Positions 12,170 through 59,959 of a stretch of DNA of 64,000 bases are shown here, piece by piece. The position numbers and the translations under genes are program-made. Under the pieces are notes generated by a model. That model worked only from the letters and a program-made list of their open reading frames with translations, was not told where the DNA came from and searched no databases. How positions within the stretch are numbered: position 1 is the first letter of the stretch; the number at the start of each line of letters is the position of its first letter. This DNA is from Thelocarpon superellum (taxonomy: Eukaryota): the NCBI GenBank assembly GCA_026025795.1, contig JAPEUG010000018.1:1-64000 (forward strand). The letters are read 5' to 3'.

Positions 12170-15049
12170 ATGCCCGCCGAGGTGATCGATCGTCCGAATC
12201 CTCAGCCGCTTCCCTCCAGGATCCCGGACGAGGTCTTGGCGCTTTCGGTCAAGCTTGACAAGACCAAGCTCGACCATGAAACCAGTCAGAGCTTGGACGA
12301 GTTTCGTCGCGCGGCCAACTACATTGCTGCTGGTATGCTGATGTCCTCTGTACATGCCCGACGTCCATTGTAGCTTGCTCACTGGTCATGTCCTAGCTAT
12401 GATCTTCCTGCAAGACAACGTCTTACTCGAACGAGACTTGACCTTTGATGACATCAAGCCCCGATTGCTAGGTAAACCAGCCTCATCTTCTTGCTGTCAT
12501 GTGGTGAAGTGACGTTACTGATCTCTCCCTCAGGCCATTGGGGGACCTGCCCCGGTCTCACCCTGGTGTATTCCCACCTCAACCTGCTAGTAAGCAAACA
12601 TAATGTGGACATGCTCTTCGTCGTCGGGCCCGGTCATGGTGCGCCCGCCATCCTGGCCACGCTTTGGATCGAGGGATCCATGGAGAAATTCTATCCCCAA
12701 TACGCTCGCACCAAAGAGGGTCTTCATAACCTCATCACGGGCTTCAGTACGCCCAAGGGACTCCCGAGGTAAGTTTCCGAAAAGCCGCCGACGACCGAAT
12801 CTGACCTTGCACGTAGCCATATCAATTCGGAGACGCCCGGGTCGATCCACGAGGGCGGCGAACTAGGTTATGCGTTGTCTGTCGCCTTTGGTGCTGTCAT
12901 GGATCATCCCGATTTGGTCGTCGCATGCGTCGTTGGTGACGGCGAAGCCGAGAGCGGTCCTACAGCAACGTACGTCAGCTACCATGATCGGCTTTTTGCC
13001 GCGCTGACATGATGCAGGGCGTGGCATGCAGCCAAATACATCGACCCTGCCGAATCGGGAGCAGTGATTCCCATCGTCCACGTGAATGGCTTCAAAATCA
13101 GTGAGCGGACCATCTACGGATGCATGGATGACAAGGAGATGGTGGCACTGTTTACGGGCTACGGATACCAGTGTCGATTTGTCGAGGACCTTGAGAGCAT
13201 CGACGCGGATATGGGCGCGTCCATGGAGTGGGCGCTGCAGGAAATTCGGCATATCCAACACGCCGCTCGATCGGGAAAGCCCCTCTTGAAGCCCCGCTGG
13301 CCTGTCCTGATCCTGCGCACACCCAAGGTGCGATACATTCCCGTGCTTTCCGCGAGTCCGGTCTAATCTAGTCCCGGCACAGGGATGGAGTGGTCCCAAG
13401 AAGGTACATGGAGAGTTCGTCGAGGGCTCATTCCACTCGCACCAAGTGCCGCTTATGGCCGCCAAGTCGGACAAGGGAGAACTCAAGGATCTGCAGAGCT
13501 GGTTGATGTCGTACAAGCCGCGAGAGCTGTTCAAGAAAGATGGCACGGTCACGGAGCACATGTTACGGATTGTGCCCAGGGATGAGAAAAAGCTGGGCCA
13601 GCGCAAAGAGACATATGACTCGTACCAGACGCTCAAGGTTCCCGACTGGCGCAAATTTGGGGTCAAGCAAGGGACGCAAGCCAGCTGCATGAAGACGATT
13701 GGCGACCTCCTCGATCAGGTGCTGGTGGACAACCCTCACACCATGAGGATCTTCTCGCCCGATGAGCTGGTCAGCAACAAGCTCGACGCCGTCTTTGACC
13801 ACACCGGACGGAATTTCCAGTGGGATGAGTTCTCCAATGCTCGTGGCGGACGTGTGATCGAGATCCTCAGCGAGCACACGTGCCAGGGCTTCCTCCAGGG
13901 GTACACCTTGACCGGTCGGACCGGTCTGTTTCCGTCATACGAGAGTTTCTTGGGCATCGTCCACACTATGATGGTCCAGTACAGCAAATTCTGTAAAATG
14001 GTACGTACGACTGCTACTGGTGACGGTCGCTTTGGCCAACGCTGCTAGGGACGCGAAACCGGGTGGCGAAAAGATGTGCCCAGCGTCAACTATTTGGAGA
14101 CTAGCACCTGGACTCGACAAGGTTGGTGGTGCCCCTCGCGCAACGGAATCGGAGCCTCGGAGGATTTCGCTGACCACGTCTGCCAGAACATAATGGCTTC
14201 TCGCACCAGAACCCGTCGTTCATTGGTGCGGTGCTCAATCTAAAGCCAACGGCGGCGCGGGTCTACTTCCCGCCGGACGCGAACTGTTTCCTGTCAACCA
14301 TCGCTCACTGCTTGCGGTCGAAGAATTACGTCAACCTCATGGTTGGATCCAAACAACCCCAGCCGGTATTTCTGTCGGTGGATGACGCCGACGCCCACTG
14401 CAAGGCGGGTGGGTCGACATGGAAATTCGCCAGCACGGACGACGGTCTCGCTCCTGACGTGGTCCTGGTTGGGATTGGAGCCGAGTTGACGTTTGAGGTC
14501 GTTGCTGCGGCGTCGATGCTACGGAAACTCGCGCCGCACCTGCGGGTGCGCGTGGTCAATGTGACGGATCTGATGATCCTCGGTCTCGAAGGCACGCATC
14601 CACATTCGTTATCGCACGTGGACTTCGATGCCCTGTTCACGGCAGACAAGCCCATCCACTTCAACTATCACGGCTACGCCAACGAGCTCAAGGGGCTTCT
14701 CTTCGGCCGTCCCAGACTCGATCGGGTCAGCATCGAGAGCTACCGCGAGGAAGGCAGCACCACGACGCCCTTCGACATGATGCTGCGTAACTGTGTCAGT
14801 CGGTACCACGTGGCCGAAGCAGCAGTCAAAGGAGCTGCCGAAAGCAATGAGCAGGTTCGGTTGGATATGCACCTTTTGCTGAGCGGGATCCGCCATGAAG
14901 TGCAGAAGTGTCATGAGTCCATCATGGCCACCGGGAAAGGTCCGTATCGCCTCCCAGCTCCGTGAAATGACATCGTACGCTGAGGCTGACAACCTACGGT
15001 GCCGACACATATAGACGCTGAGGGCACCTACGACACCCCAGAATTCTAG
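12170..15049 (+). CDS. xfp: Xylulose-5-phosphate/fructose-6-phosphate phosphoketolase, 9 exons
   Basis: Motifs [40 protein letters not shown] (TPP binding), [48 protein letters not shown]. Introns 12333-12396, 12472-12533, 12769-12816, 12970-13017, 13328-13382, 14001-14048, 14122-14186, 14940-15014; ends [11 protein letters not shown]. Confidence 0.97.
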
Positions 15050-18337: not shown

Positions 18338-21300
18338 ATGGAGGCCTTTCCCAGTCCGGGCCGGCAGCACCCGCTGCAGCGGCGACTGACAAAGATGTAT
18401 TCCGAGACCAAGCGATCATACGACACCGTCACCGAGCCCCCCAAGGTCGAGATCACGCCGGAGATGTCGTCGTTGCACCGCAAGCTACGCATCCAAAAGG
18501 ACCGCTTGATCACATGGGGGCTCGAGTGGAGCGATACAACTGCCGCCCAGCCCGGCGACATCGACGAGTCGCTCGAACGTGAAGGCTTCGCCTCCGTCGT
18601 CAGCAACGTCATGTCCTCCATCAAAGAGATCCTCGAGGAAGCCGAGAGGATGCGCTTCTCCGATCGTCCCACCGCGGCCGAGCCCGACAGCTACGGCGTC
18701 GGCGCCAAGTATGGCAAGACCCCGCCCAAAGAGCGCTGGTCCGCCGCCGATAAGCCCCGATTTCAAGAGCTGCTGCATGATCTCACCACCTCCATTGATA
18801 CCCTCTTCAACCTCTCCAAATCCCGCCGGCGCACCACCCACAGCCCCAATCCCAAGCGCTCGCCCGCCCCCGCCACGCCCGCCCCTTCAGCTGCGGGGAG
18901 CGGGAAGGGGCCGGCCGCGGCCGCGGTCTCGGCCTCACCACCTCTCCCGCGCGGTGGACTGGCTGGCCGCATCGACGTCTCCTCGCTGATCCTCCCCGAG
19001 GAGGCCGGCCGCGATACCCTGCCGCCCTACGAGACCATCGCCACACCGTCCAACTCGCGATCCATGGGCTACATCCGACGACCCCAGCCCGTGGCGCAGC
19101 CGTGGCAGAAGGATGGTCCGAGCGTGGCCACGGTGCCCGTCTTGATCGAGTACGCGCCTTTCGATCCCGTGTACGCCAGCACCGGCATCTCGCCTTCGAC
19201 CGCGCGCCTCGAGAATCTCGCCGAGGCCTTGCAGGACTCGGACGAATCGCCCATGTTACCTGGCACCCGCGTCCTCCATCTGATCGGCTACTTCGAGTGC
19301 CCCAAGCAGCCGCGCTTTGGCCTCGTCTACGAGCTCCCCGAGGCCGTCTTCAGCGGCCCGTCGGATCCCGAGAAGCCATTGGCGAGCATGGCCCCGTTCA
19401 CCCTGCTGTCGCTGCTGCAGGCCAATCCACCCGGGCAGAACGCGTCGGTGCCCAATCTCGAAGATCGGCTCCGGCTCGCCTTCAGCCTGGCCACGACCTT
19501 CCTCCACCTCCACACCAAGGACGTGACGCACCGCGACGTCACCAGCAACAACATCGTCTTCTTCCGCACGCCCCTCACCACGCGCTCGTCGTCCGGGCAA
19601 GATTTTGGCTGCGATCTCCGGAGTCCGTACCTGACCTCCTTCGATCTCTTCTCCGACTGTGACCTCGAGGAGCGGCCGGAGCAGCGCACGGCGCACATCT
19701 ATCGGCACCCGCGCGACCTGCGCACCAACCAGGCCACGCCGCAGCACGACTACAGCCTGGCCTTTGACATCTATGGTCTCGGCATGATCCTGCTCGAGAT
19801 TGGCCTCTGGATGCCTCTCAACAGTTTCTGGAAGCGCAGCTACAACATCGCCACCTTCCAGAATCGGATCGAGAAGATCTACGTCAAGAAGCTGGGCCAA
19901 AAATGCGGCGGCTCCTACATGCGCGCGGTCGAGAGCTGCTTGTCCGCCCCCGCCCGCGAGATGGCCCTCGCCGGCACGGGGCAGAAGGCCAACACCCAGT
20001 GGCACTTCTTTTGTACCGTCATCAAACCGCTCGAACGCTGTTGCGCCATCGACGACGCAGCCTCGGTGCCCTTTTCCGATTCGCTCGCCATCCCGACCCT
20101 GTCGACGTCAAGTTCGGTTGGGGAGGAGTCGATGCTGAAGTCCACCCTAGGGTCGCAGTCGCAGCCGGACGCCCCGCTGCCCGAGCCCATGGCCGTCGAG
20201 GGCGCGGATCAATCAGCGGCGACCCCGAATGTGGCCCCGGCCCCCGCCAGCGCGAGACTCAAGGTACATCCGGTGCAGGTGGATCGGGTGCAGCTGAACG
20301 AATGGCACAAGCACCTCCTGCCGCGACTGGAACGACTGCTGGAGAAGGTCCTGCACGGACCGACGGAAACCTTCACCATCGATCTCATTGGCATTGGCGA
20401 TACGGCGCAGACGGCGCGGCCCACGATCCTCATCACCTGCTCGAGCGTGGGCAAGGTGAAGGGGATCCTGAAGCGCCATTTCGCGTACGATCAGGCCGTC
20501 TTCGACCTCCGCGTGCGCAAGGGCAAGCTGCGACGCTCCCACGCCGGCAAATCCCGAGCCCGACAGGACGGCGCGGCCCCGCGATCTGCCATGCATTCGG
20601 GGGACGAGGACGACCCGGAGGTGATGAATCCATTTCATCAAGAGCGGCCCCTCTGCGGCGCGTCGATCGGGGCTTTCAAGGAGACCACGGAGCGGCACCA
20701 CGCGGCCGTGTCCTATGGCGGCGTGGTGTTGGTCGACGACGAACCGTACGGCATGACCGTGCACCACTTGCTCGACGATCCCAGCTCGGACGAGGACGAG
20801 GAGTCGGATGACGAGGTCAGCCCCGCGCGATCGAGTGGAATCCTCTCCTCCAATCGTCGCCGCCCGCCCCGATGGGCTCCTCCTCCGCCGCCGCCGGCTC
20901 CGACGCCTCCGGGTGCCTTCGAGGGCACCTACCTGTCGGACGTGTCCGACGAAGACACGGAGGATGAAGGTGACGCGAACGCCGAGCGGCAGCTCGTCTG
21001 GTCAGCGCTACATGCGTCCCCGCGCGATGCCGAGGATGAATATCGGCCGATAGAGACCGGCGACGCAGCCGGCATCCAAGTCGGGCAACAAACGGATTAC
21101 ATCATCACACAGCCGGCGCTCGACGATGTCGAGCAGGACTTCTTCCCCAACGAAGAAGACAAGAACGAGGAGCATCTGGAGTCGCATGGCTTCGGTACGA
21201 TCTACGCGTCATCGGGCATCCGACGCCTGGTGCAGGGTAACGAGAAGCATGAGATCGATTGGGCGCTGGTCAAGATCAAGCCCGACCGGCTGCAGCCGTT

Positions 21301-22049
21301 CAACGTGGTCCAAGGCGGTCGACGCTATTGCCATGATCCGGACGTGGCGCGCCGGCCGGCGCTGATCAGTCCGATCCCCCGTCATCCAAATCACGGGGAG
21401 GAGGATGACCTATACCCCCGTCGGGTGGCGTCTCTGGACGAACTGCCGAACCTCGCGGTGCACTGCCTGGGTCGCACCAGCGGCCTCCAAGGCGGCATCA
21501 TCTCGCCGGCCATGAGCTCGGTGCGGGTGGCGGGCCGAGCGACGACATCACGCAGCTGGCATGTCTTTGGCAAACTTGGAGGTGAGCCGCTCTCCCCCAG
21601 CGCCCTGGGTCGCGCACATGGCTGACCTGATGCATCTAGTGCCGGGCGATTCGGGCGCGTGGATCATCGACAACCAGCAGGGACGCGTGTGTGGCCATGT
21701 CCTGGCCTGGTGCTCACGTAACAAGTGGGCATACATCTGCCCGATGCAGATCTTGCTAGAAGACATGGAACGGACCTTGCCCGCGCGGCGCGTGACGCTG
21801 CCGGGCGGAGAGGCGCACGCGCTCTCCGCGCTGCCGTCGCGCAGCAGCGCACGGCGAAGCGACGTGGCGATGGCAGGGCTCGCGGACATCAATCAACTGC
21901 GTCTCGCGTCGCCCAGCCCCGAGACAGCGGAACGGTCGAGCAGCGCCGCGGAGACCCCCTTCCTCCGAAAAGACGATCCCGGTGTGGGCGGTTCTCGACA
22001 AGTGGCCCGGGAGGGACGGCATGTCAGCACCCAGACGGCCAAAGGCTGA
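18338..22049 (+). CDS. HeLo (HET-s/LopB-type) domain + kinase-like domain + trypsin-like serine protease fusion, ~1217 aa, 2 exons
   Basis: HeLo-type LHRKLRIQKDRLITWG...RWSAADKPRFQELLHDLTTSIDTLFNL; kinase-like THRDVTSNNIVFF, IYRHP, FDIYGLGMILLEIGLW; protease MTVHH, EIDWALV, GRTSG, GDSGAW. Intron 21582-21639 (GTGAGC...GCTGAC...TAG); exons 3244+410 nt = 1218 codons including stop. Confidence 0.85.
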
Positions 22050-23024: not shown

Positions 23025-24940
23025 ATGCCCTCCGCCGACGAGCCCCCGAGCTCGCCCGCCAGCGTGCCGGCGTTCACCTCGCTGGAAGAGTCGCTCACGT
23101 ATTACAAGTCGCAATACGAACAGCTCGAGGCCGAGCTGGCTGATTTTCAGGCCTCCAGTCAAGAGCTGGAGGCGGAGTTGGAGCGAGATGTCGAGGCATC
23201 GGAGAAGCGGGAGCGCCTTTTGAAGGAGAAGGTCGAGGGGCTGGGTTATGAGGTTGACGAGTGGAAGGTCAGCTTCCGGACGGATGCACATCCTTCCCGC
23301 CAAGCTGCCGTGCTGACCAGCGTGCTCCGCAGGCCAAGTATAAGCAGTCCAAATCGGAGGCGAATACGTCGCAGAACACCCTCCAGAAAGAGATCACCAC
23401 ACTGCGGGACGCCAACCGGACGATGCAGCTCAAGCTGCGCGACATCGAGGTGGCCAACGACGACTTTGAACGACAAGCACGAAACACGACGTCCTCCCTC
23501 GAGGACCTGGAATCGAAATACAATGTCGCGATCGAGCGCGCCGTCATGTTGGAGGCGGAGATTCAGGTGGGCGAGCAGGAGCGCGAGAGCCTCCGCATCG
23601 AGACCCAACGGCTGCGTGACGAGTTGGGAGACTTGAAGATCGAGGCGGAGATAACGCAGGGCAAATTGCGGCATCTCGAAGGCGCGGCCCAGCAAGAACA
23701 CCAGCACAAGCCCTCGCCGCTGACGGAGATACGTAACCCGCCGCACTCGCCTACGTCCGACCGATCCCTCTTGACCACGGGCTCCTCGCCCACCATGTCC
23801 ACGCCGCCGCGGCCCAAATCGGCCTCGACCTCAACATCGGAAGCGCCGACACCGCCATCACCGCCGACGTCGGAAGCGTCGGCCAAGGCAGCGGCCTCTA
23901 CCGCCAACCCTCCTCCCCCGGCAAGTCCGGCAGAGGTCGACAACACCACGCCACGTCCGTCGCAGTTCCAGCCACGACTTCCCCGTCACTCTCGTGGGCC
24001 ATCTATCCCCGTCAGCAGTGGCCGCGGCACCCCCTCGATCGCGCCCCGCAGCGCCACCGGTCGGGGTCAGGTGCGGGGCACCGCGGGCATGCCGTCCTCG
24101 GGCTCCTTGCGCCAGATCCGCGGCCTGATCGGACAGATGCAGAAGCTCGAGCAACGCGTCCACTCGGCCCGGTCCAAACTTCCCGCACCCGTCTGCACGC
24201 CGCCGCACGCCTCGCCCCGCAACGGCTCGGCCGCCGGACACCATCCTATCATCCCCTCGTCCGTAACGATGCGGAGCCCGAAGAAGCGCACCGGCGGCAG
24301 CAATATCAGCGCCATGTCTTCCGTCCACGACGGCGACGGGACCCCGACCGCCTCGGCCGCCTCGCGCCGCGTGAGCCGGCTGTCATATTGCGGCGGCCCC
24401 GCGGCGACGACAACGACGACGAACAACACGACGACCGAGCCTGGCGGGAGTCGACCAAGCAGCCGCGCGAGCATCTCCAGCCGCACCTCCATCAATCCCC
24501 ACGGGGGCTATCCCCGGCCGGGTAGTCGGGCCAGTCTGTCGGGCGCGCGCACCCCGCTGGGACATTTCGCCTCTAATGGGCCGGCGCTCGAGGGCCGGCG
24601 GCCACGCTCGTCGGTCAGTGGCAGCTACGCGGCAATGCATGGCCATGGACACGCAGCCAGCGTCGACGGCGTCGAGGAGCGTGACGAACGATTCTCCACC
24701 CCAACGCCGCGACGCAGTCTGATCGGAAAGGCCGATCTCGCGGGAGAGTCGGGCATCCCCACCCCATCGGGCATCCCGCGGCGCCAGAGTGGCGGGGGCG
24801 CCGCCTTCAAGCCCTTTGGCGGCCCCATGACGCCGGGCGTGCGACGGCCAAGCTCCAGCATGCAATTGCGCGACGTTGACGAGGACATGGCGCCGCCGGA
24901 GCGGAGGAAGAAGCTGAGCGGCGTCGGAGAGACCTACTAA
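23025..24940 (+). CDS. nudE: Nuclear distribution protein NudE (dynein/LIS1 regulator), 2 exons
   Basis: Coiled coil YYKSQYEQLEAELADFQASSQELEAELE...LRDIEVANDDFERQAR...LRIETQRLRDEL; SLRQIRGLIGQMQKLEQRVHSARSKLP; ends GETY*. Intron 23268-23332. Confidence 0.95.
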
Positions 24941-27041: not shown

Positions 27042-30000
27042 ATGGCTGCGGACGACGTTCCCACCACGTCGAAGCCCGCGATGACCAACGGTTCGTCGTC
27101 ATCCCCAGCCAATGGCACCAACGGCACCCACGGCGCTCCCTCTTCCTACGCCGCCAAGCACAACCTCCCCGCCCACTTCATTGGTGGCAATCACCTCGCC
27201 GTGGCCCCGCCGGGTCGGGTCAAGGACTTTGTCGCCGCCCACGACGGCCACACGGTCATCACATCCGTCCTCATCGCCAACAATGGCATTGCCGCGGTCA
27301 AAGAGATTCGCTCCGTCCGAAAATGGGCCTACGAGACTTTTGGCGATGAGCGGGCCATCCAATTCACCGTCATGGCCACGCCTGAGGACCTTCGTGCCAA
27401 CGCCGACTACATCCGCATGGCCGACCAATACGTCGAGGTCCCCGGCGGCACCAACAACAACAACTACGCCAACGTCGAACTGATCGTCGACGTGGCCGAG
27501 CGAATGGGCGTGCACGCCGTCTGGGCCGGATGGGGTCACGCTTCGGAGAACCCGGCCTTGCCCGAGTCCCTCGCGGCCTCCAAGATCGTCTTCATCGGAC
27601 CACCCGGCTCCGCCATGCGATCTTTGGGTGACAAGATCTCCTCCACCATCGTGGCACAGCACGCCAAGGTCCCCTGCATCCCCTGGTCCGGCACCGGCGT
27701 CGACACTGTGCACGTGGACGAGAACAACCTCGTCACCGTCGACGACGACGTCTATGCCCGTGGATGTACGCACTCGCCCGAGGAGGGCCTGGACAAAGCC
27801 CGCGAGATTGGCTTCCCCGTCATGGTCAAGGCCTCCGAGGGCGGTGGCGGCAAAGGCATCCGAAAGGTCGAGAATGAGGACGAATTCATCGCCAAGTATA
27901 AGAACGCCGCGTCGGAGGTTCCGGGCTCACCAATGTTCATCATGCAGCTGGCCGGCAACGCCCGCCATCTCGAGGTCCAGTTGCTGGCCGACGAGTATGG
28001 CAACAACATCTCGCTCTTCGGCCGTGACTGCTCCGTCCAGCGGCGTCACCAAAAGATCATCGAGGAGGCCCCCGTGACCATTGCCAAGCCCGCCACCTTC
28101 CAGGCCATGGAGAAGGCGGCAGTACGTCTCGGCCGCCTGGTCGGGTACGTGTCCGCCGGTACCGTTGAGTATCTCTACTCGCACGCCGACGACAAGTTCT
28201 ACTTCCTCGAGCTCAATCCTCGTCTGCAGGTCGAGCATCCCACCACCGAGATGGTCAGCGGCGTCGACCTGCCCGCCGCCCAGCTCCAGGTCGCCATGGG
28301 TCTGCCCCTGCACCGTATCCGCGATATTCGTCTGCTGTACGGCGCCGACCCCCAGACGGCCACCCCGATCGATTTCGACTTTGCCCGCCAGGACAGCGTC
28401 AAGACGCAGCGCCGACCCACGCCTAAAGGCCACACGACCGCCTGCCGCATCACCTCGGAGGATCCGGGCGAGGGATTTAAGCCCTCGAGCGGTACGATGC
28501 ATGAGCTGAACTTCCGCAGCAGCTCCAATGTCTGGGGCTACTTCTCCGTCGGCACCGCCGGTGGCATCCACAGCTTCTCCGACAGCCAATTCGGGCACAT
28601 CTTCGCCTACGGCGAGAACCGATCGGCCTCGCGCAAGAACATGGTGGTCGCGCTCAAGGAGCTGAGCATCCGTGGCGACTTCCGCACCACCGTGGAGTAC
28701 CTCATCAAGCTGCTCCAGACGCCCGCCTTCGAGGGAAACACCATCACCACCGGTTGGCTCGACGAGCTCATCTCCAAAAAACTGACCTCGGAGCGCCCTG
28801 ACACCATTCTTGCCGTCGTCTGCGGTGCGCTCACCAAGGCCCACGTGGCCAGCGAGGCCTGTCTGGCCGAGTACCGCACCGGCCTGGAGAAGGGCCAAGT
28901 CCCCGCCAAGGACATCCTCAAGACCGTCTTCCCGATCGACTTCATCTATGAGGGGCACCGCTACAAGTTCACCGCGACCCGCTCGAGCAGCGATAGCTAT
29001 CACCTCTTCATCAACGGCTCCAAGTGCGCGGTCGGCGTCCGTGCCTTGAGCGACGGCGGCCTGCTGGTCCTGCTGAACGGACGCAGCCACAACATTTACT
29101 GGAAGGAGGAGGTCGGCGCCACCCGCATGAGCGTGGACGGCAAAACGTGTCTGCTTGAGCAGGAGAACGATCCGACCCAGCTGCGGACCCCGAGCCCGGG
29201 CAAGCTGGTCAAGTTTTCCGTGGAGAATGGGGAGCATGTGCGCGCGGGCCAGGCCTTCGCGGAGGTGGAGGTGATGAAGATGTACATGCCGCTCCTCGCC
29301 CAGGAGGACGGCATTGTGCAGCTGATCAAGCAGCCGGGCGCCACGCTCGAGGCCGGCGATATCCTCGGCATTCTCTCGCTCGACGATCCGTCGCGCGTCA
29401 AGCATGCGCAACCCTTCTCCGGCCAGCTGCCCGACCTCGGCCCGCCCCAGGTGGTGGGAAATAAGCCACCGCAGCGCTTCGCCCTACTCCACAAGATCCT
29501 GCAGAACATCCTCTTGGGCTTCGACAACCAGGTGATCATGGCCGCCACCCTAAAAGACCTCATCGAGGTCCTGCGCGATCCCGAGCTGCCCTACGGGGAA
29601 TGGGCCGCTCAGATCTCGGCCCTGCACGCACGCATGCCCCAGAAGCTCGACGCCAATTTCGGTCAGATCGTCGAACGCGCCAAGGCGCGCAAGATCGAGT
29701 TTCCGGCCAAGCAGCTCCAGAAGGTCATGGTCCGCTTCCTCGACGAGCACGTGGCGCCGCACGACGTGGACGTCCTCAAGGCCGCATTGGCCCCGCTTGA
29801 CGATGTCATGACTCGCTACGGCGAGGGGCTGAAGCCCCACGAATTCTCCGTCATCACTGGCCTGCTCGATCAATACTGGGACGTAGAGCACCTCTTCTCC
29901 GGCCGCAACGCCCGTGATGAGGATGTCATCCTGCGCCTACGCGACGAGCACAAGGACGATATCCCCGCCGTCGTGCAGTCGGTCCTGTCCCACAGTCGCA

Positions 30001-33000
30001 TTGGCGCCAAGAACACTCTGGTCCTGGCCATCATGGAGGAGTACCGGCCCAATAAGCCACAGGCCGGCAGCCTCGCCAAGTACTTCCGCCCCACCCTCAA
30101 GAAGCTGACGGAGCTCGAGTCCCGCGCCACGGCCAAGGTTGCCTTGAAGGCCCGCCAGGTGCTCATCCAATGCGCCCTGCCCTCTCTCGAGGAGCGCGCC
30201 GCCCAGATGGAGCATATCCTGCGGTCTTCGGTGGTCGAATCGCGCTACGGTGAAACCGGCTGGGAGCATCGCGAACCCAATTTCGATATCCTGAAGGAGG
30301 TCGTCGACTCCAAGTACACCGTGTTCGACGTCCTTCCGCTCTTCTTCGCCCACGCCGATCCGTGGGTGTCTTTGGCTGCCCTGGAAGTCTACATCCGCCG
30401 CGCCTACCGCGCCTACACCCTCAAGTCCATCGCTTACGTTCACGTCAACGAGCCGCCCTGCATCGTGTCCTGGGATTTCGTGCTGCGCAAGGTCGGGCAC
30501 GCCGACTTTGGCATGCCCATCACCTCCTCGAATCCCTCGACCCCCGGCACACCCGGCGTCGAAGGTGGCAACCCTTTCAAGCGCGTCAGCTCCATCAGCG
30601 ACATGTCTTACCTCGTCGATCGGACCAAGGACGAGTCCCCGCGCCGCGGCGTCATCGTGCCGTTGCAATATCTTGACGAGGCGGACGAGTATCTGATGCG
30701 CGCCTTGGAGGTGCTCCCGTCCACGGGCGCCCGTCGCAAGGCCAGCGGCTCTAGCCTACTCATTCCGGGCTATGCCGGCGGTCGCAAGGCACCCGAGGAG
30801 GAGCTCTCGGCGGTGTGTAACGTGGCCATTCGTGACGTCGAGACGGCCGACGACAGCGAGATTAGCGCGCGGCTGGCGCAGATTGTGCGTGATCACCGTG
30901 ACGAGTTGTTCGCCCGTCGGGTGCGTCGCTTGACCTTCATCTGTGGGCACCGAGACGGCTCGAATCCTGGCTACTTCACCTACCGTGGCCCGACGTACGA
31001 GGAGGACGACAGCATCCGGCACATCGAGCCCGCCCTTGCCTTTCAGCTGGAGCTACAGCGTCTCTCCAAGTTCCACATCAAGCCTGTCTTCACCGAGAAC
31101 CGGAATATCCACGTCTATGAGGCCGTGGGCAAGGGCGCCGAGTCGGATCGGCGCTACTTCACCCGCGCTGTCGTGCGCCAGGGTCGGCTCCGCGACGAGA
31201 TCCCCACGGAGGAGTACCTGATCTCCGAGGCGGACCGATTGATGACCGACATCCTGGACGCGCTGGAGATCATTGGCAACAACAACTCTGACCTCAACCA
31301 CATCTTCATCAACTTCTCCCCAGTCTTCCCGCTGGAGCCGCGTGAGGTCGAAGAGGCCCTGGCCGGGTTCCTCGAGCGTTTTGGCCGCCGCGCCTGGCGC
31401 CTACGCGTCACGGGTGCCGAAATCCGCATCATCTGCACCAACCCGTCCACGGGCATGCCCTATCCCCTGCGCGTCGTCATCACCAACACCTCGGGCTACG
31501 TGATCCAGGTGGAGATGTACGCCGAGCGCAAGTCTGACAAGGGCGGCGAATGGATCTTCCAGAGCATCGGCGGCACCAACAAGATTGGCTCTATGCATCT
31601 CCGCAACGTCAACACGCCCTACCCCACCAAAGAGTGGCTTCAGCCGAAGCGCTACCGGGCCCACCTCATGGGGACGCAGTACGTCTATGATTTCCCCGAG
31701 CTCTTCCGACAGGCTCTCCAGAACAGTTGGACCAAGGCCGTGGCCAAGCACTCGTCGCTACGGGAGAAGCAACCGCCGACGGGCGAGTGCATGGACTACA
31801 GCGAGCTGGTGTTGGACGACTCAGACAACCTCGCCGAAGTGTCACGCGAGCCGGGCACCAACACCCACGGCATGGTGGGATGGATCGTGACGGCACGGAG
31901 CCCGGAATATCCGCGGGGCCGGCGCTTCATCATCGTGGCCAACGACATTACCTTCAAGATCGGCTCCTTTGGTCCGATCGAGGACAAGTTCTTCCACAAG
32001 TGCACCCAGCTCGCCCGACGACTGGGGATCCCGCGCATCTACCTGTCGGCCAACTCCGGTGCGCGCATCGGCATGGCCGATGAGCTTATCCCGCACTTCT
32101 CCGTGGCTTGGAATGATCCTGCGAAGCCCGAGGCCGGCTTCAAGTACCTGTACTTGACGCCGGAGCTGAAGAAGCGCTTTGAAGACGGCAAGTCGCGCGA
32201 TGTCATCACCGAAAAGATCACGGAGGATGGGGAGGAGCGCTACAAGATCGTCACCATCGTCGGCGCGGAAGATGGCTTGGGCGTTGAGTGTCTGAAGGGA
32301 TCGGGGCTGATCGCCGGGGCAACCTCACGCGCGTACGAAGATATCTTCACCATCACGCTGGTGACGTGCCGATCCGTGGGTACGTGCTCTCTACTCCCCT
32401 TCTCTATTTCGTGGCTTTCCTGGCTCAATGACTCACGGTGCTTAGGTATCGGGGCGTATCTTGTGCGTCTCGGTCAACGGGCGATTCAGATCGAAGGCCA
32501 ACCCATCATTCTCACTGGCGCCCCAGCCATCAACAAACTGCTTGGCCGGGAGGTGTACACGTCTAATTTGCAGCTGGGTGGCACGCAGATCATGCACAAG
32601 AATGGCGTGTCCCACATGACGGCAGCAGATGACTTTGAGGGCGTTTCGAAGATCATGGAATGGCTGTCGTTTGTGCCGGACCGGAAGAACAACCCAGTGC
32701 CCATCTCGCCCTCCGTCGATCCGTGGGACCGCGACGTGACCTACTACCCCCCCACCCGGCAGGCGTATGACGTGCGCTGGCTGATCCAAGGGAAAGAAGA
32801 GGTCGAGGGCTTCGCCACGGGAATCTTTGACCGAGACTCGTTCCGCGAGTCTCTCGGCGGTTGGGCTCGGACCGTCGTGGTGGGCCGGGCTCGTCTCGGC
32901 GGCATCCCGATTGGTGTCATTGCGGTCGAGTCACGGTCGGTGGAGAATGTGACGCCGGCGGACCCGGCCAACCCCGACTCCACGGAGCAGATCACCAATG

Positions 33001-34017
33001 AAGCCGGCGGAGTGTGGTATCCTAATTCGGCCTTCAAGACGGCGCAGGCCATCAATGACTTCAACCACGGCGAGCAGCTGCCGTTGATGATCTTGGCCAA
33101 CTGGCGTGGCTTCTCAGGCGGCCAACGGGATATGTTCAACGAGGTGCTCAAGTACGGTTCGTACATTGTCGATGCCTTGGTCAAATTTGAGCAACCCATC
33201 TTCATCTACATTCCGCCCCTGGGCGAGCTCCGTGGTGGCTCATGGGTACGTTTCGTTCCCCCGTCGGGTCGGCAATGAAATCCGTGCTGACTAGGTGCCC
33301 TAGGTTGTGGTGGACCCCACCATCAACTCCGACTTCATGGAGATGTACGCCGACGAGGATGCCCGTGGAGGCGTGTTGGAGCCCGAAGGTATCGTGAACA
33401 TCAAGTACCGGCGTGAAAAGCAGCTGGAGACCATGGCACGTCTCGATGCCACCTACGCCGGCCTCAAGCGGTCTCTCAACGATGCCTCCGTCTCGGCGGA
33501 GCAGAAGTCGGACATCAAGACGAAGATGACGGAGCGTGAGGCCTTGCTACTCCCCGTCTACATGCAAGTATCGCTCCAGTTTGCGGACCTTCACGACCGC
33601 GCCGGTCGCATGCAAGCCAAGGGAACGATCCGACAAGCGCTGCGGTGGAAAGAAGCCCGTCGGTTCTTCTACTGGCGTCTACGGCGGCGCTTGAATGAAG
33701 AATATATTGTCAAGAAGATGAGCGGCACGTCGGGCCGCAACGTCGGCAGCCGTGACACGCATCTGGAGAAGCTCAAGGCTTGGTCGGGCGTGCCCCAATT
33801 TGAACAGGATGACCGAGCGGTGGCGATGTGGTACGAAGAGAACCGCAAAGACGTCTATGCCAAGGTGGAGCAGCTCAAGCAAGAAGGCGTTGCTCAAGAC
33901 GTCGCCACGCTGCTCCGCAACAATAAGGAGGGCGGGTTGAAGGGCGTTGCCCAGGTCTTGTCCATGTTGCCCGTGGCGGAGAAGGAGAACGTGCTAAAAT
34001 TCCTCTCGACCCAGTGA
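27042..34017 (+). CDS. ACC1: Acetyl-CoA carboxylase (multidomain, eukaryotic), 3 exons
   Basis: Biotin carboxylase (VLIANNGIAAVK, WAGWGHASENP, KASEGGGGKG, RDCSVQRRHQK, ELNPRLQVEH), biotin site EVMKM, carboxyltransferase (SANSGARIG, RSVGIGAYLVRLGQR, LANWRGFSGGQRDM, GGVLEPEG). Introns 32380-32445 and 33246-33303. An in-frame upstream ATG exists at 26880. Confidence 0.98.
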
Positions 34018-45356: not shown

Positions 45357-46808
45357 ATGGACCGTCTCCCTCCTCCCAAGGAAAATCCAGAGGTCAAGCC
45401 AGAGGCCAGGCCAGAGGGTATGGCTACGATGGCGCTCTCCATGCCCGCCTCGACGACGCCATCTGCATCTTCGCATAGCATGATGTTACCTCCGATTCAT
45501 GAGGTAAGTGGATGCCAAAGCGGTCCCAGGTAGTCCTAACTCGCGACAAGGCTGTCCCTCAGATTATCTCGACGGGCGCGCGAGATGCGCGGAGTGGCTC
45601 AATCCACCTCTCCCATCGTGCCAACTATCCCACTCTTAGCACCGACTCTCGTACGGTGTCACCATCGTCGTATCCGGCGTCACCGGTACCGAAACGACGG
45701 CGACTCTCTCCTCAGCCGTATGGGCCGGAAACGTCGCTACCCCGGATCTCGTCCTTGCAGTCTACCGACTCGGAACGAACGGCATTCTCTTCGGGATGGC
45801 CCAAGAGTCCACGAGGTGCCGTTGTGCCCTCCGTGTCAGAATTGATTGGGGGCAAGGCGCCTAGCTCAGGGACATCATCCTCACACTCGGACATTTCTCA
45901 TGGTCGGCATCATTCGTCACCAATTCGGTCGGCTCGACTTCCAAGCCATCGAACGGTTCATGAGCCTCCCAGTCCAAGCCGGTCTGCACCACAGGCGGAC
46001 GTTACTGTCGAGGGCCGGCTGGAGGGCCGACTAGAGGGCCGACTGGATGGTCGTCTGGACAGTCGACTGGAAAGCCAATCAGACGGCCGTCTGGAGAGCC
46101 GACTTAAGAGTCGATTGGAGGGTCGATTGGAGAGCCGACTGGAGCGTCTGGACACGCATCGCGGACGACCAGTGGATCTCGTCCCTCAACGACTGGAACG
46201 GTCGTACACGTCTCCTTCACTGGATACCAGTCGATACGGGAACCAGAGTTACCAGTCGCTCAGCTCCGGAGACTCTTCAACGAGCCGGACCTTTCATCAT
46301 GGTTCGCAGCCTTACTCGCCGAGCCATCATGATCGTCGGCATTCGCCCTACAGCAGTCCAGTGACACAACGTCCCGATCGATCGCCATATTCGAGCAGCG
46401 ACCGACAGAACCTGAGCTACGAGTCCTTGGGAGAATATCCGGGGGAACAACGGAGCAAACGACGACGAGGGAACTTGCCCAAGTCGACGACGGACATTCT
46501 GAAGAATTGGTTCCACGAACATCTCAACCATCCGTATCCAAGCGAAGAGGAGAAGCAGATTTTGATGTGTCAGACGAGACTTACGATGAGTCAGGTATGT
46601 GTGGAAGAGTGTCCGAATGAGAGAGAAAGCGATGAATGATCCTAATGTATTGTTGGTCTAGATCAGCAATTGGTTTATCAACTGTCGTCGACGCCACCTT
46701 CCCTTTTACAATCGGCAGATTCGAGCGGAGATAATCGCCCAAGCTCAAGAAAGAGATGAAAGGGAGGAGCGACGAGGCGAGAGCGATGAGGGGAGGGTCG
46801 CTACGTGA
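45357..46808 (+). CDS. TALE-class homeobox transcription factor (Cup9/Tos8/TGIF-like), 3 coding exons
   Basis: KRRRGNLPKSTTDILKNWFHEHLNHPYPSEEEKQILMCQTRLTMSQ|ISNWFINCRRR (PYP loop, WFIN). Introns 45504-45550 and 46595-46661; stop TGA 46806-46808. Start could instead be ATG 45420. Confidence 0.9.
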
Positions 46809-57216: not shown

Positions 57217-59959
57217 TTACGACATCTCGGCATCCTCAACCTCGTCGTCCTCCAACGACTCGATGGCGCCTTTGATGTACTGACCAGCCTGTGCAATACG
57301 TCAGTCGGGCCCGCGGTGAGCGTCATGCCATCCTGAGCCATACCTTGGGATCAAGATTGAGCGCAATCGTGAAATGCTTGATGGCACTGGCCCGCTGTCG
57401 TAGCGTCTTGTAGAGCTTTCCCAGCAGGAAATGCACTTTGGCATCGTCGGGCGCCGAGTCCTTGAGGATCTTCAGCTCGACCAAGGCCAGGTGGGGCTCT
57501 TGCAGCGCCATGAGCACCCGTGCTTTGTTGAAGCGTGACTTGGACGACGTCGCGTCCAAAGTGCATGCCTCGGCGTACTGCACCAGCGCTGCCCGAGGGT
57601 TCTTGAGCTTCTCCAACACCTGCCACCACCATCAGTCGGAGGCGCCGTCGGACCATGACGACGGCCCGTGCTTACCATGCCGATGCAGAACACGAGCACC
57701 GCGTTGGTGGGATTGATCCCGGCCGCGGTGCGGAAGTGTTTCTCCGCCACGTCGTACTTGCCCATCTTCTCGTAGACCTTGCCCAGCCCGTACCAGGCGT
57801 TGTAGTAGCGATGGTCCGCCGCCACGCCGCTGCGGTAGGCCACCAGCGCCTTGTCGAATTCCTCGTTCATCATGTGCTCGTGGCCCTGGTGCGTGTAGGC
57901 GTAGGCGAGCGTCGGGTCCAACTGCGTCGCACGCTTGAAGCACTCGAGCGCTTGATCATGGTCACGCTGCAGCGAGAAGGTGTTGCCCACGGCACACCAG
58001 GCCTGCGGCGACAGCCGATCGAGGTCGATGAGCTCGTGCGCGAGATAGGCCAGCTCCACCTCGTCCTTGAGGTGCCAGAGCACCGTCGAATAGATCTCCA
58101 TGTCCTCGAGCCGCGCCGGGGCCAAGGTGCGGACCTTGCGGAAGTGTTTCTCCGCCTCGCGATACCAGCCTTTCTCGTGATACGCGCGACCCATCTGCGC
58201 CAGCACCCACGTCGTATCCCGCTGCGGCGTCACGAGGGACTGAAACATCTGGAGCGCCTCGGTGCAGTGGAAATGCGCGAGCGCAAAGTATCCGCCGCCC
58301 AGCTTCGCGAAGAGATCGAGCAGCCACTGGATGGCCTCCATCTTCTTCGACGGCTCCGGCGAACCAGCCTTTCCGCCCAGCGCCGCCGACGCACCCGCGC
58401 CAAAGAGCGCCTGTTGGTTTTCCTTGGCGTCCACCTCGCTGGGCTCGCCCGCCTTCCGGTTGCCAGCGACCGTCCGTCCCATCGTCGACCCGCTGGCGGT
58501 GGTTCGTCCTTTGGCGCCAGGCGCTTTGGCTTTCTTCAGCTCGCGTCCTTCCCGAAGACCGAGGCTGCCCGTCGACGCGGCAAACTTGCTGCTGGTCGGT
58601 CGGATCTGGTTGAACAGCCGCACACTCCGTCGTTGCGGCGCGGCGCTGGGATCAATCTGGGATGCCGCGCTCTGCGTCGCCTGGCCCGAGATGTTCCTTT
58701 TGCGCTCGCCGCCGGCCGCTACGGAGCTTGAGGTCCTCGAGGCCTCGCCCAGCTCTTCCATTTCTCCACGGACCGGCCCGCGCGCCCGCGCCGTCGCGGC
58801 GCGAAGGCGCGTGGTGTTATCCCGGCTGAAGTCCATCCCAGCAAAGTTTCGATGTTTCCTCAAGGGCGCGTGTGGTGCATCCATGGCTTCTACGACCGAC
58901 ATGCCGCCACCGCCACCACCACCGCCACCTCCAATATCAGGGCCGAGATGGAAACTGCTGTCGATGCCGTGGCCGGTGCCGGTCGGCGTCTCCATCATGT
59001 CGAAAGCGAGTCCCCCACCCCCTCCCAGACCGGTGGGAGAGCCTTTGTTGGTCGAGGTGCTCTCATTGAGCTTCTGGAAGAGGGCCGCGCTGCCACCCCC
59101 AAAGCCCGCCCCCGCATCGCTGTTGGGGCGAGATGGCGGAATGGAGAACGGGTCGGCGTGGGCGGTGGGTTGCAGCGGATTCTTGTGCTGCGACTGCAAT
59201 GGGCCTCCGTTGGGCATGCCGTCCTCCATCAGTGACGCTGGCTCCGGGTAGGGGTCGGATGTAGAGGACGAGAGGTACGCGAGCATTTCGGGTGTCATCA
59301 CGAAAATGTTCGGGATCCGGATGTTGGCACCTGATAGCCTCGTCAGCGGCGAGAACGTGGGTGAGGCACGAGGCCCGCTCTCACCTGTGTGACAGAGCCC
59401 GAGAAAGGCGTCCCACATGAAGGGATTGAGCTTCAACGCTTCCACGTAGTAGTCGATCGCTTTCGTCGGGTCGCCATATCCATGCCAGAGCTTGCCGAGG
59501 AGGCAGTACACCGCGGCCGCATCGGGCAGATGTCGCCGCGTGGTCTCGGAGTGTTTGTCTGGTATGCCAACCACATCAGTCGGGTGGTCAAGACATGAGA
59601 ACCATGCGCTCCGGCTCACCCCACGAGTTGCGTCCGGCCCACTGGGACCGGCTGCGTTCTAGCGCGCCGATGCCCTCCTTGTGTCGGTGGGGCCGCTGGA
59701 GACACGACTTGGCGTAGATAAATGCACACCCGACATGCGTCCCTCGCATACCCATCGGCTTGCTGTATTCATACGCCAACTGGTACTCACCCAGGCGGAA
59801 GTGACAGAGCGCGACCAGGTGGGAGGCCTCAGCCGAGCGCATCTCGTGGGCGTAGAGACGGCCGGACAAGAAGAGGGCGTTTTGCAAGAAGTCATTATCG
59901 AGGTAATAGTAAATGAGGTGGCGAAGCTGACTCGAGATGTGGGCGTTGGAGGGAGACAT
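57217..59959 (-). CDS. CDC27: Anaphase-promoting complex TPR subunit Cdc27/BimA/Nuc2, 5 exons
   Basis: MSPSNAHISSQLRHLIYYYLDN, LPDAAAVYCLLGKL, ALKLNPFMWDAF, APQRRSVRL, MEIYSTVLWHLK, SPQAWCAVGNTFSLQRDH, HYYNAWYGLG, FTIALNLDPK|AGQYIKGAIESLEDD...MS*. Confidence 0.95.

Follow-up and report, generated by a model that had tools for sequence, protein, structure and literature searches.

The window analysed here is a stretch of 64,000 nucleotides (nt) from contig JAPEUG010000018.1 (assembly GCA_026025795.1) of Thelocarpon superellum, and the gene of interest lies on its + strand at positions 18338 to 22049, where a single 58-nt intron interrupts the coding sequence of a protein of 1217 amino acids (aa). 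An earlier note made from this sequence had described the product as one chain with a HeLo domain, a pseudokinase, a prodomain-like segment and a trypsin-fold protease, and had proposed it as a candidate signalling or cell death switch with an architecture for which it knew of no functional study. This reading of the domains is right, with Pfam supporting the HeLo domain and structure prediction and fold search supporting the kinase and protease folds. The architecture is real, yet it does not amount to a new type of system, since SltB of Aspergillus nidulans has already been studied; the statement on missing functional work was wrong, as papers on SltB appeared in 2015 and 2016 (PMC4557415, PMC4985261). 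The protein belongs to the SltB family, and the gene is very probably the sltB orthologue of a lichen-forming Pezizomycotina fungus, run as a self-cleaving zymogen that processes the transcription factor SltA. What is said below of SltB follows excerpts of the two papers cited.

Gene model and the conserved intron

The coding sequence consists of an open reading frame (ORF) at 18338..21625 (1095 aa, ATG start) and a frame-shifted ORF at 21561..22049, which are joined by the intron. The intron has a GTGAGC donor, a CTGAC at 21622-21626 and a TAG acceptor, and because exon 1 amounts to 1081 codons and one base, it is in phase 1; it splits a Val codon (G|V-P-G-D-S). The spliced product is identical (100%) to the 1217-aa database protein P0003, annotated as a hypothetical protein from a metagenome-assembled genome of T. 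superellum, and the junction reads ...FGKLGVPGDSGAW... in that protein. The start codon is supported by the finding that M1 and the block that follows it are common to at least 90% of 32 aligned homologues. That two or more separate genes have been taken as one is scarcely credible: nothing was found in favour of such an artefact, the only join being the 58-nt intron, whereas one unbroken frame of 1081 codons covers all three domains as far as Asp974, the intron signals are canonical, the intron position is conserved and the same collinear architecture recurs in hundreds of species.

In A. nidulans, the sole intron of sltB has its donor at nt 3413-4 and its acceptor at nt 3479-80 (PMC4557415). 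These coordinates correspond to 1137 codons and 1 nt, five codons before Ser1142, and both the position and the phase match those found here, where the intron follows codon 1081 and S1086 comes five codons on. Retention of the intron at 21582-21639 would bring in a stop at 21625, and the resulting protein of 1095 aa would retain the triad His and Asp but have no catalytic Ser. For the equivalent intron, alternative donor use with truncated products has been reported in four Aspergillus species, dependent on the nitrogen source in A. nidulans (PMC4557415). Splicing of an intron that is kept at a distance of exactly five codons upstream of the catalytic Ser could serve as a switch.

Orthology to SltB and the folds of the chain

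We compared the protein with SltB through P0343, a 1272-aa Aspergillus protein that came from a homologue search started from a Eurotiomycete representative, heads a 15-member cluster at 90% identity and served as a numbering-equivalent proxy. Its length equals that of SltB, and of the 22 residues to which the SltB papers give numbers, 18 are present in it (S1142, G1140, H1033, D1036, F1126, G1156, W722, K703, K707, M692, N544, Y568, E743, T972, H1008, K257, K690 and K693). The T. superellum protein is collinear with P0343 over all three parts, at 39.4% identity across 1155 columns, and the equivalents of N544, Y568, W722, E743, H1008, H1033, D1036, G1140, S1142 and G1156 are identical in the two. 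Six of the seven SltB residues that have been tested by mutation are kept (S1086, H971, G1100, N503, Y527 and E677 in the numbering of T. superellum). An N-terminal helical region, a pseudokinase, a linker, a conserved region, an acidic insert and a chymotrypsin-like protease follow each other in the same order as in SltB, although the protein is 55 aa shorter. Homologues were found far beyond chance, with 660 among 7998 scored candidates at an E value of 0.001 or lower, and 2594 cluster representatives passed the same threshold, 206 of them with an E value of at most 1e-30. Those with a species name are all from Pezizomycotina (Lecanoromycetes, Dothideomycetes, Eurotiomycetes, Geoglossomycetes and relatives), and SltB is reported to be restricted to Pezizomycotina and to co-occur with SltA in every member examined (PMC4557415). 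Two proteins with additional Pfam families, P0013 with WD40-type repeats and P0016 with a Diaphanous GTPase-binding domain, may be merged gene models.

Several points weigh against the assignment. The comparison went through P0343, which is named for another Aspergillus species, and not through A. nidulans SltB itself, and four of the 22 numbered residues (939, 1037, 1046 and 1049) are absent from P0343, which has Asp at 1036, 1045 and 1048. Phe1126, the deletion of which is reported to give a null phenotype in SltB, corresponds to Thr1070 here, the linker in the cleavage zone shows little conservation and has 15 residues fewer than that of the proxy, and the spatial adjacency of the triad residues would follow from the predicted topology. 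The Thr for Phe1126, the different linker and a kinase loop that reads HRD...N, where Aspergillus has HGN, could also be taken as signs that the SltB fold has been kept for a diverged function, with another substrate being cleaved or only a scaffold role being left. We regard such a divergence as very improbable, because the candidate triad is complete and the oxyanion Gly is kept, the active-site motifs are near-invariant across the family and SltA and SltB occur together as described above. An SltB orthologue with the function of SltB is the reading that we retain.

The chain opens with a helical bundle that matches the Pfam family HeLo (PF14479) at 33.1 bits, above the cut-off of 23.2, with its best stretch at aa 43-106 (nt 18464-18655), and the same family was matched in all 32 aligned homologues (E value of 0.01 or lower). 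In the model of aa 1-640, with a mean predicted local distance difference test score (pLDDT) of 73.4 and a predicted template modelling score (pTM) of 0.61, the helices of the bundle span residues 16-31, 41-64, 75-82, 85-107 and 138-167. An Atlas feature search with aa 1-175 placed HeLo clusters at the top at 0.90, which is a lead only. Neither MLKL nor HET-S appeared in the best 50 VIA matches or the listed Foldseek matches of the N-terminal model, which is uninformative about the bundle because kinases fill these lists. The SltB pseudokinase prodomain begins with a HeLo-family bundle, which is an addition to the published picture of SltB, and since the prodomain opens in this way its layout is MLKL-like. 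No paper joining fungal SltB and HeLo was found in the literature searched. The Aspergillus proxy scores 24.4 bits, barely over the cut-off, and this may explain why the SltB papers are silent on HeLo. Automatic annotation does already detect the domain, with Aspergillus orthologues being named 'HET-s/LopB domain protein' in databases. Fusions of certain fungal HELL domains to a kinase or pseudokinase are mentioned in a 2025 review, SltB not being named in the excerpt.

The kinase-like domain that follows is a pseudokinase, as the earlier note had read it. It matches the Pfam family DUF7580 (PF24476) at 45.3 bits over aa 354-538 and Pkinase at 15.3 bits, which is under the cut-off of that family, and a bilobal kinase fold is supported by structure prediction and fold search. 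Sequence searches against solved structures gave weak kinase matches only, with a best E value of 0.056 for the single sequence and of 0.00031 (CLK1) for a full-length profile. A Gly-rich loop, the β3 Lys (VAIK) and a DFG motif were not found in the domain; VPVLIEY and LTSFD stand in the places of the last two, and the DFG place itself reads SFD. For conservation in the family we used an alignment of 309 proteins of at least 1000 aa out of 378, with shorter ones and the duplicate P0001 excluded, and in this alignment Lys does not rank in the top five residues by frequency anywhere in positions 266-272. In the catalytic loop, H398 is present in 305 of the 309 sequences and N405 in 280, while position 400 is N in 155 and D in 116, meaning that HRD...N is retained in the T. 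superellum protein and not across the family. N503 (19844-19846), the equivalent of SltB N544, sits within the helical C-lobe of the predicted kinase fold. This would place the N544 equivalent inside the kinase domain, unlike the 2015 suggestion of a separate region between domains (PMC4557415).

For the second half of the chain, the model of aa 639-1217 has a mean pLDDT of 74.9 and a pTM of 0.75, with 280 residues at a pLDDT of 90 or higher and low confidence in the acidic insert and the C-terminal tail. A double β-barrel chymotrypsin fold is supported by structure prediction and fold search. A profile of the protease half built from 17 sequences gave nothing meaningful against solved structures (best E value of 1.7, for Rab-43), and since sequence searches matched no solved protease the fold is visible by structure only. 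The Pfam family S64 (PF08192) was unmatched by the products of exon 1 and exon 2 (E value of up to 1) and by the 32 full-length homologues (E value of up to 0.01). SltB Met692, as represented by the proxy, aligns with L641, the first residue of the conserved module. The acidic insert, 94 aa rich in Asp, Glu, Ser and Pro, splits the first β-barrel between the catalytic His and the Asp; its sequence is variable, and the alignments show it throughout.

The protease half and the conserved region share, in the model, the fold of the ATP-binding and protease domains of the plant protein NAL1. A VIA structural alignment paired model residues 10..500 with residues 89..446 of rice NAL1 (PDB 7y77, 8pn2 and 8pmi) at 17% sequence identity, and there was no match to NAL1 at the sequence level with the protease-half profile. 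NAL1 is described, in an excerpt of the source, with an ATP-binding domain at aa 89-172, a protease domain at aa 184-458 and a triad of H234, D291 and S385 (PMC12012508). Since the alignment starts at NAL1 residue 89, the module that comes after the SltB cleavage site would correspond to the NAL1 ATP-binding domain. The two proteins also share a His-His pair, which is H809-H810 in T. superellum and invariant in the SltB family. NAL1 differs in having no HeLo and pseudokinase half and in forming a hexameric cage, and self-cleavage is not described for it in the excerpt. No paper linking NAL1 with Ssy5 was found in the literature searched, the two papers that mention NAL1, Aspergillus and serine protease together are unrelated by title, and no paper on NAL1 and SltB was among the matches listed.

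The candidate triad and its histidine

The triad proposed in the earlier note is conserved in the family, and the codons that it had named are correct (H398 at 19529, H809 at 20762, D974 at 21257 and S1086 at 21651). H809 and H810 are each kept in 308 of the 309 sequences, and D974 is kept in 306, the other three having gaps. S1086 is found in 241, or 241 of the 245 with a residue at that place, with 64 gaps and 4 other residues. A loss of the Ser in the 64 homologues with a gap was considered and rejected, as 57 of them end no more than 40 residues past the intron position, as unspliced gene calls would. These chain ends near the intron position suggest that many members of the family have the intron. 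G1084 is the equivalent of SltB G1140, and H971, three residues upstream of D974, is the equivalent of SltB H1033.

In the general topology of the chymotrypsin fold, His57 and Asp102 have set places relative to the strands of the barrels. The H809-H810 pair opens a helical turn right after model strand 164-169, which is the His57 position, D974 comes right before model strand 338-342, the Asp102 position, and S1086 precedes strand 451-454. The catalytic His is therefore, on topology and analogy, most likely one of the two in the invariant H809/H810 pair, and H810 is favoured on the same grounds. The pair corresponds to H873-H874 in the numbering of the proxy and SltB and lies upstream of the acidic insert. 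The SltB papers had proposed His939 as the catalytic His (2015, PMC4557415) and then His1008 or His1033 (2016, PMC4985261), and their modelling covered residues 900-1192 only (PMC4985261). H873 and H874 are outside the segment modelled in 2016, and as the acidic insert intervenes, modelling that began at residue 900 missed the pair. NAL1 likewise has a His-His pair, in which H234 is reported as catalytic and H233 as regulatory, tuning the activity (PMC12012508). No earlier account of a catalytic His in the HH pair was found in the literature searched.

H971 is at a place that we take to be about position 99 in chymotrypsin numbering, a substrate-pocket position. With H971, and hence SltB H1033, near this pocket position, the partial phenotype of SltB H1033A would fit.

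Proposed mechanism, alternatives and wider meaning

SltB is AN6132 of A. nidulans, a protein of 1272 aa with a pseudokinase and a chymotrypsin-like protease (PMC4557415, PMC4985261), and it is reported to process the transcription factor SltA for tolerance to cations and alkaline pH. Doubly tagged SltB gives two fragments, the cut being near Met692, between pseudokinase and protease, and the reaction is mainly intramolecular and dependent on Ser1142 (PMC4985261). The S1142A protein is uncleaved and phenotypically null and leaves SltA as the inactive 78-kDa form, and H1033A is only partly defective (PMC4985261). A fragment of residues 692-1272 is inactive alone, cleavage in trans is very limited, and the N-terminal half of more than 600 aa was viewed by the authors as a prodomain or scaffold that is needed after the cut (PMC4985261). 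The self-cleavage that the earlier note had anticipated agrees, by analogy, with this published autoproteolysis.

By the same analogy, the 1217-aa chain would be produced as a zymogen, and the protease, with S1086, D974 and most likely H810, would cut its own chain, mainly intramolecularly, in the linker just upstream of residue ~641. The HeLo and pseudokinase half would be incapable of phosphorylation and would serve as a prodomain or scaffold of unusual size that is still required for activity. The primed enzyme would then cleave the C2H2 zinc-finger factor SltA to its active short form, which would switch on genes for tolerance to high cation concentrations and alkaline pH, sltB included. 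We infer these steps in T. superellum, as well as the position of the cut and the identity of the catalytic His, from A. nidulans SltB.

HET-S uses a hydrophobic first helix for membrane insertion, and a helix of this type was not found here, as the earlier note had cautioned: residues 1-35 are hydrophilic, with a mean Kyte-Doolittle hydropathy of -1.31, and the highest value of any 19-residue window across residues 1-180 is 0.66. Because of this hydrophilic N-terminus the protein is without a first helix of the HET-S kind. This argues against the idea that self-cleavage frees an MLKL-like HeLo-pseudokinase fragment that acts on membranes, in cell death or in the remodelling of endosomes or vacuoles, instead of or besides a role in SltA processing. 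The excerpts on SltB point the same way, with all forms, N-terminally tagged ones included, being cytoplasmic and without membrane association (PMC4985261) and with sltB deletion giving stress sensitivity and not a death-related phenotype (PMC4557415), and the gene here stands among housekeeping genes. What the idea can draw on is the HeLo domain itself, above its cut-off here and present in 32 of 32 homologues, the order of bundle and pseudokinase, which is the layout of MLKL, and the fungal HELL fusions of the 2025 review. It can also draw on the reports that an N-terminal GFP tag abolished SltB function (PMC4985261) and that the sltB alleles ΔN544 and E743K suppress deletions of genes of the endosomal sorting complex required for transport (ESCRT/vps) with cation tolerance and both cleavages unaffected (PMC4557415, PMC4985261), which leaves room for a second function; ΔN544 is sltB57, which suppresses the vps32 deletion without a cation phenotype. 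On balance, a membrane-acting fragment appears unlikely, and the cell death switch of the earlier note is unsupported, with SltA processing being the known output of SltB. The zymogen that processes SltA is the reading that we follow.

Among systems outside the SltB family, Ssy5 of Saccharomyces cerevisiae (family S64) resembles the protein in being a signalling endoprotease of the chymotrypsin-like kind whose large prodomain is still needed once cleavage has removed it, and it processes latent transcription factors. The earlier note had drawn this comparison, and so had the SltB authors, who reported 25% identity over 68 aa only. The Ssy5 prodomain is neither HeLo nor pseudokinase, Ssy5 is peripheral to the plasma membrane and the S64 profile is unmatched here. 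MLKL of animals and plants and the fungal HET-S and HELLP share the N-terminal HeLo-family bundle, in MLKL followed by a pseudokinase as here, but MLKL and HET-S have no protease, whereas the protein described here has a hydrophilic N-terminal helix, no prion-forming motif and a characterized orthologue that is reported to be cytosolic and to work in the processing of a transcription factor.

The surroundings of the gene are of a housekeeping or regulatory kind, with genes for mitochondrial L31, NudE, acetyl-CoA carboxylase, phosphoketolase, a homeobox protein and a tetratricopeptide repeat (TPR) protein, and none of the ORFs scanned in the window looked like an NLR or het-type gene. The NudE gene probably also has an intron, as it appears split over two overlapping frames. 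The coordinates of all features are collected in the table.

Table. Features of the sltB-family gene and its neighbours, in positions of the window
Feature	Position	Strand	Basis or remark
Phosphoketolase C-terminal domain (XFP_C)	14339-14965		
Mitochondrial ribosomal protein L31	16980-17246		
Exon 1 (codons 1-1081 and first base of codon 1082)	18338..21581	+	ORF list, sequence, translation
HeLo-type helical bundle, aa 16-167	18383..18838	+	Pfam, 32 homologues, secondary structure of the model
Pro/Ala/Ser-rich disordered linker, aa 168-235	18839..19042	+	pLDDT <50 over 169-207; composition
Pseudokinase domain, bilobal kinase fold, aa about 236-572	19043..20053	+	Includes DUF7580 match
Catalytic-loop remnant HRDVTSNN (H398-N405)	19529..19552	+	Translation
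Disordered Ser/Ala/Pro-rich linker, aa 575-640, predicted self-cleavage zone	20060..20257	+	pLDDT <50; alignment; SltB data
Conserved α/β module, aa 641-738 ('SltB-CR' of the SltB papers)	20258..20551	+	Model residues 3-100, pLDDT 84-96
Chymotrypsin-fold serine protease domain, aa about 769-1128, spans the intron	20642..21779	+	Structure prediction and fold search
Tandem His H809-H810 (MTVHH), proposed catalytic His	20762..20767	+	Conservation; model topology
Acidic, proline-rich disordered insert, aa 812-905	20771..21052	+	Block-mean pLDDT 32-55 over model residues 181-270 (protein about 819-908); composition
Candidate catalytic Asp D974 (HEIDWAL), SltB D1036	21257..21259	+	Conservation, model, alignment
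Phase-1 intron, 58 nt, 5 codons 5' of the catalytic Ser	21582..21639	+	Splice signals; P0003 spans the junction
Exon 2 (last two bases of codon 1082, codons 1083-1217, stop)	21640..22049	+	ORF list, P0003
Candidate catalytic Ser S1086 (GDSGAW), SltB S1142	21651..21653	+	Alignment
Disordered C-terminal tail, aa 1140-1217	21813..22046	+	pLDDT <50 over model residues 509-579
NudE homologue, downstream gene	23025-24940	+	NUDE_C, 149.7 bits
Acetyl-CoA carboxylase, most of it, 2078-aa ORF	27042-33278		Biotin carboxylase, BT, central and carboxyl-transferase domains
Homeobox KN protein	45512-46639		
TPR-repeat protein	57472-59418	-	

In conclusion, the analysis makes three testable additions to the picture of SltB, namely a HeLo domain in the prodomain, a NAL1-like protease half and the His-His pair as the candidate for the catalytic His. 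A broader proposal, which is speculative and for which we see only a slim chance, is that the SltB family is a fungal MLKL-type module fused to a NAL1-type protease, that the freed HeLo-pseudokinase part has a task at endomembranes and that NAL1 and SltB form one ancient class. If this were true, the endomembrane task would explain why loss-of-function alleles of sltB, and of sltA, which drives sltB expression, rescue ESCRT/vps deletion mutants even with normal cation tolerance and with both cleavages normal, and plant NAL1 and fungal SltB would be ancient enzymes that combine an ATP-binding domain with a protease to process regulators of transcription.

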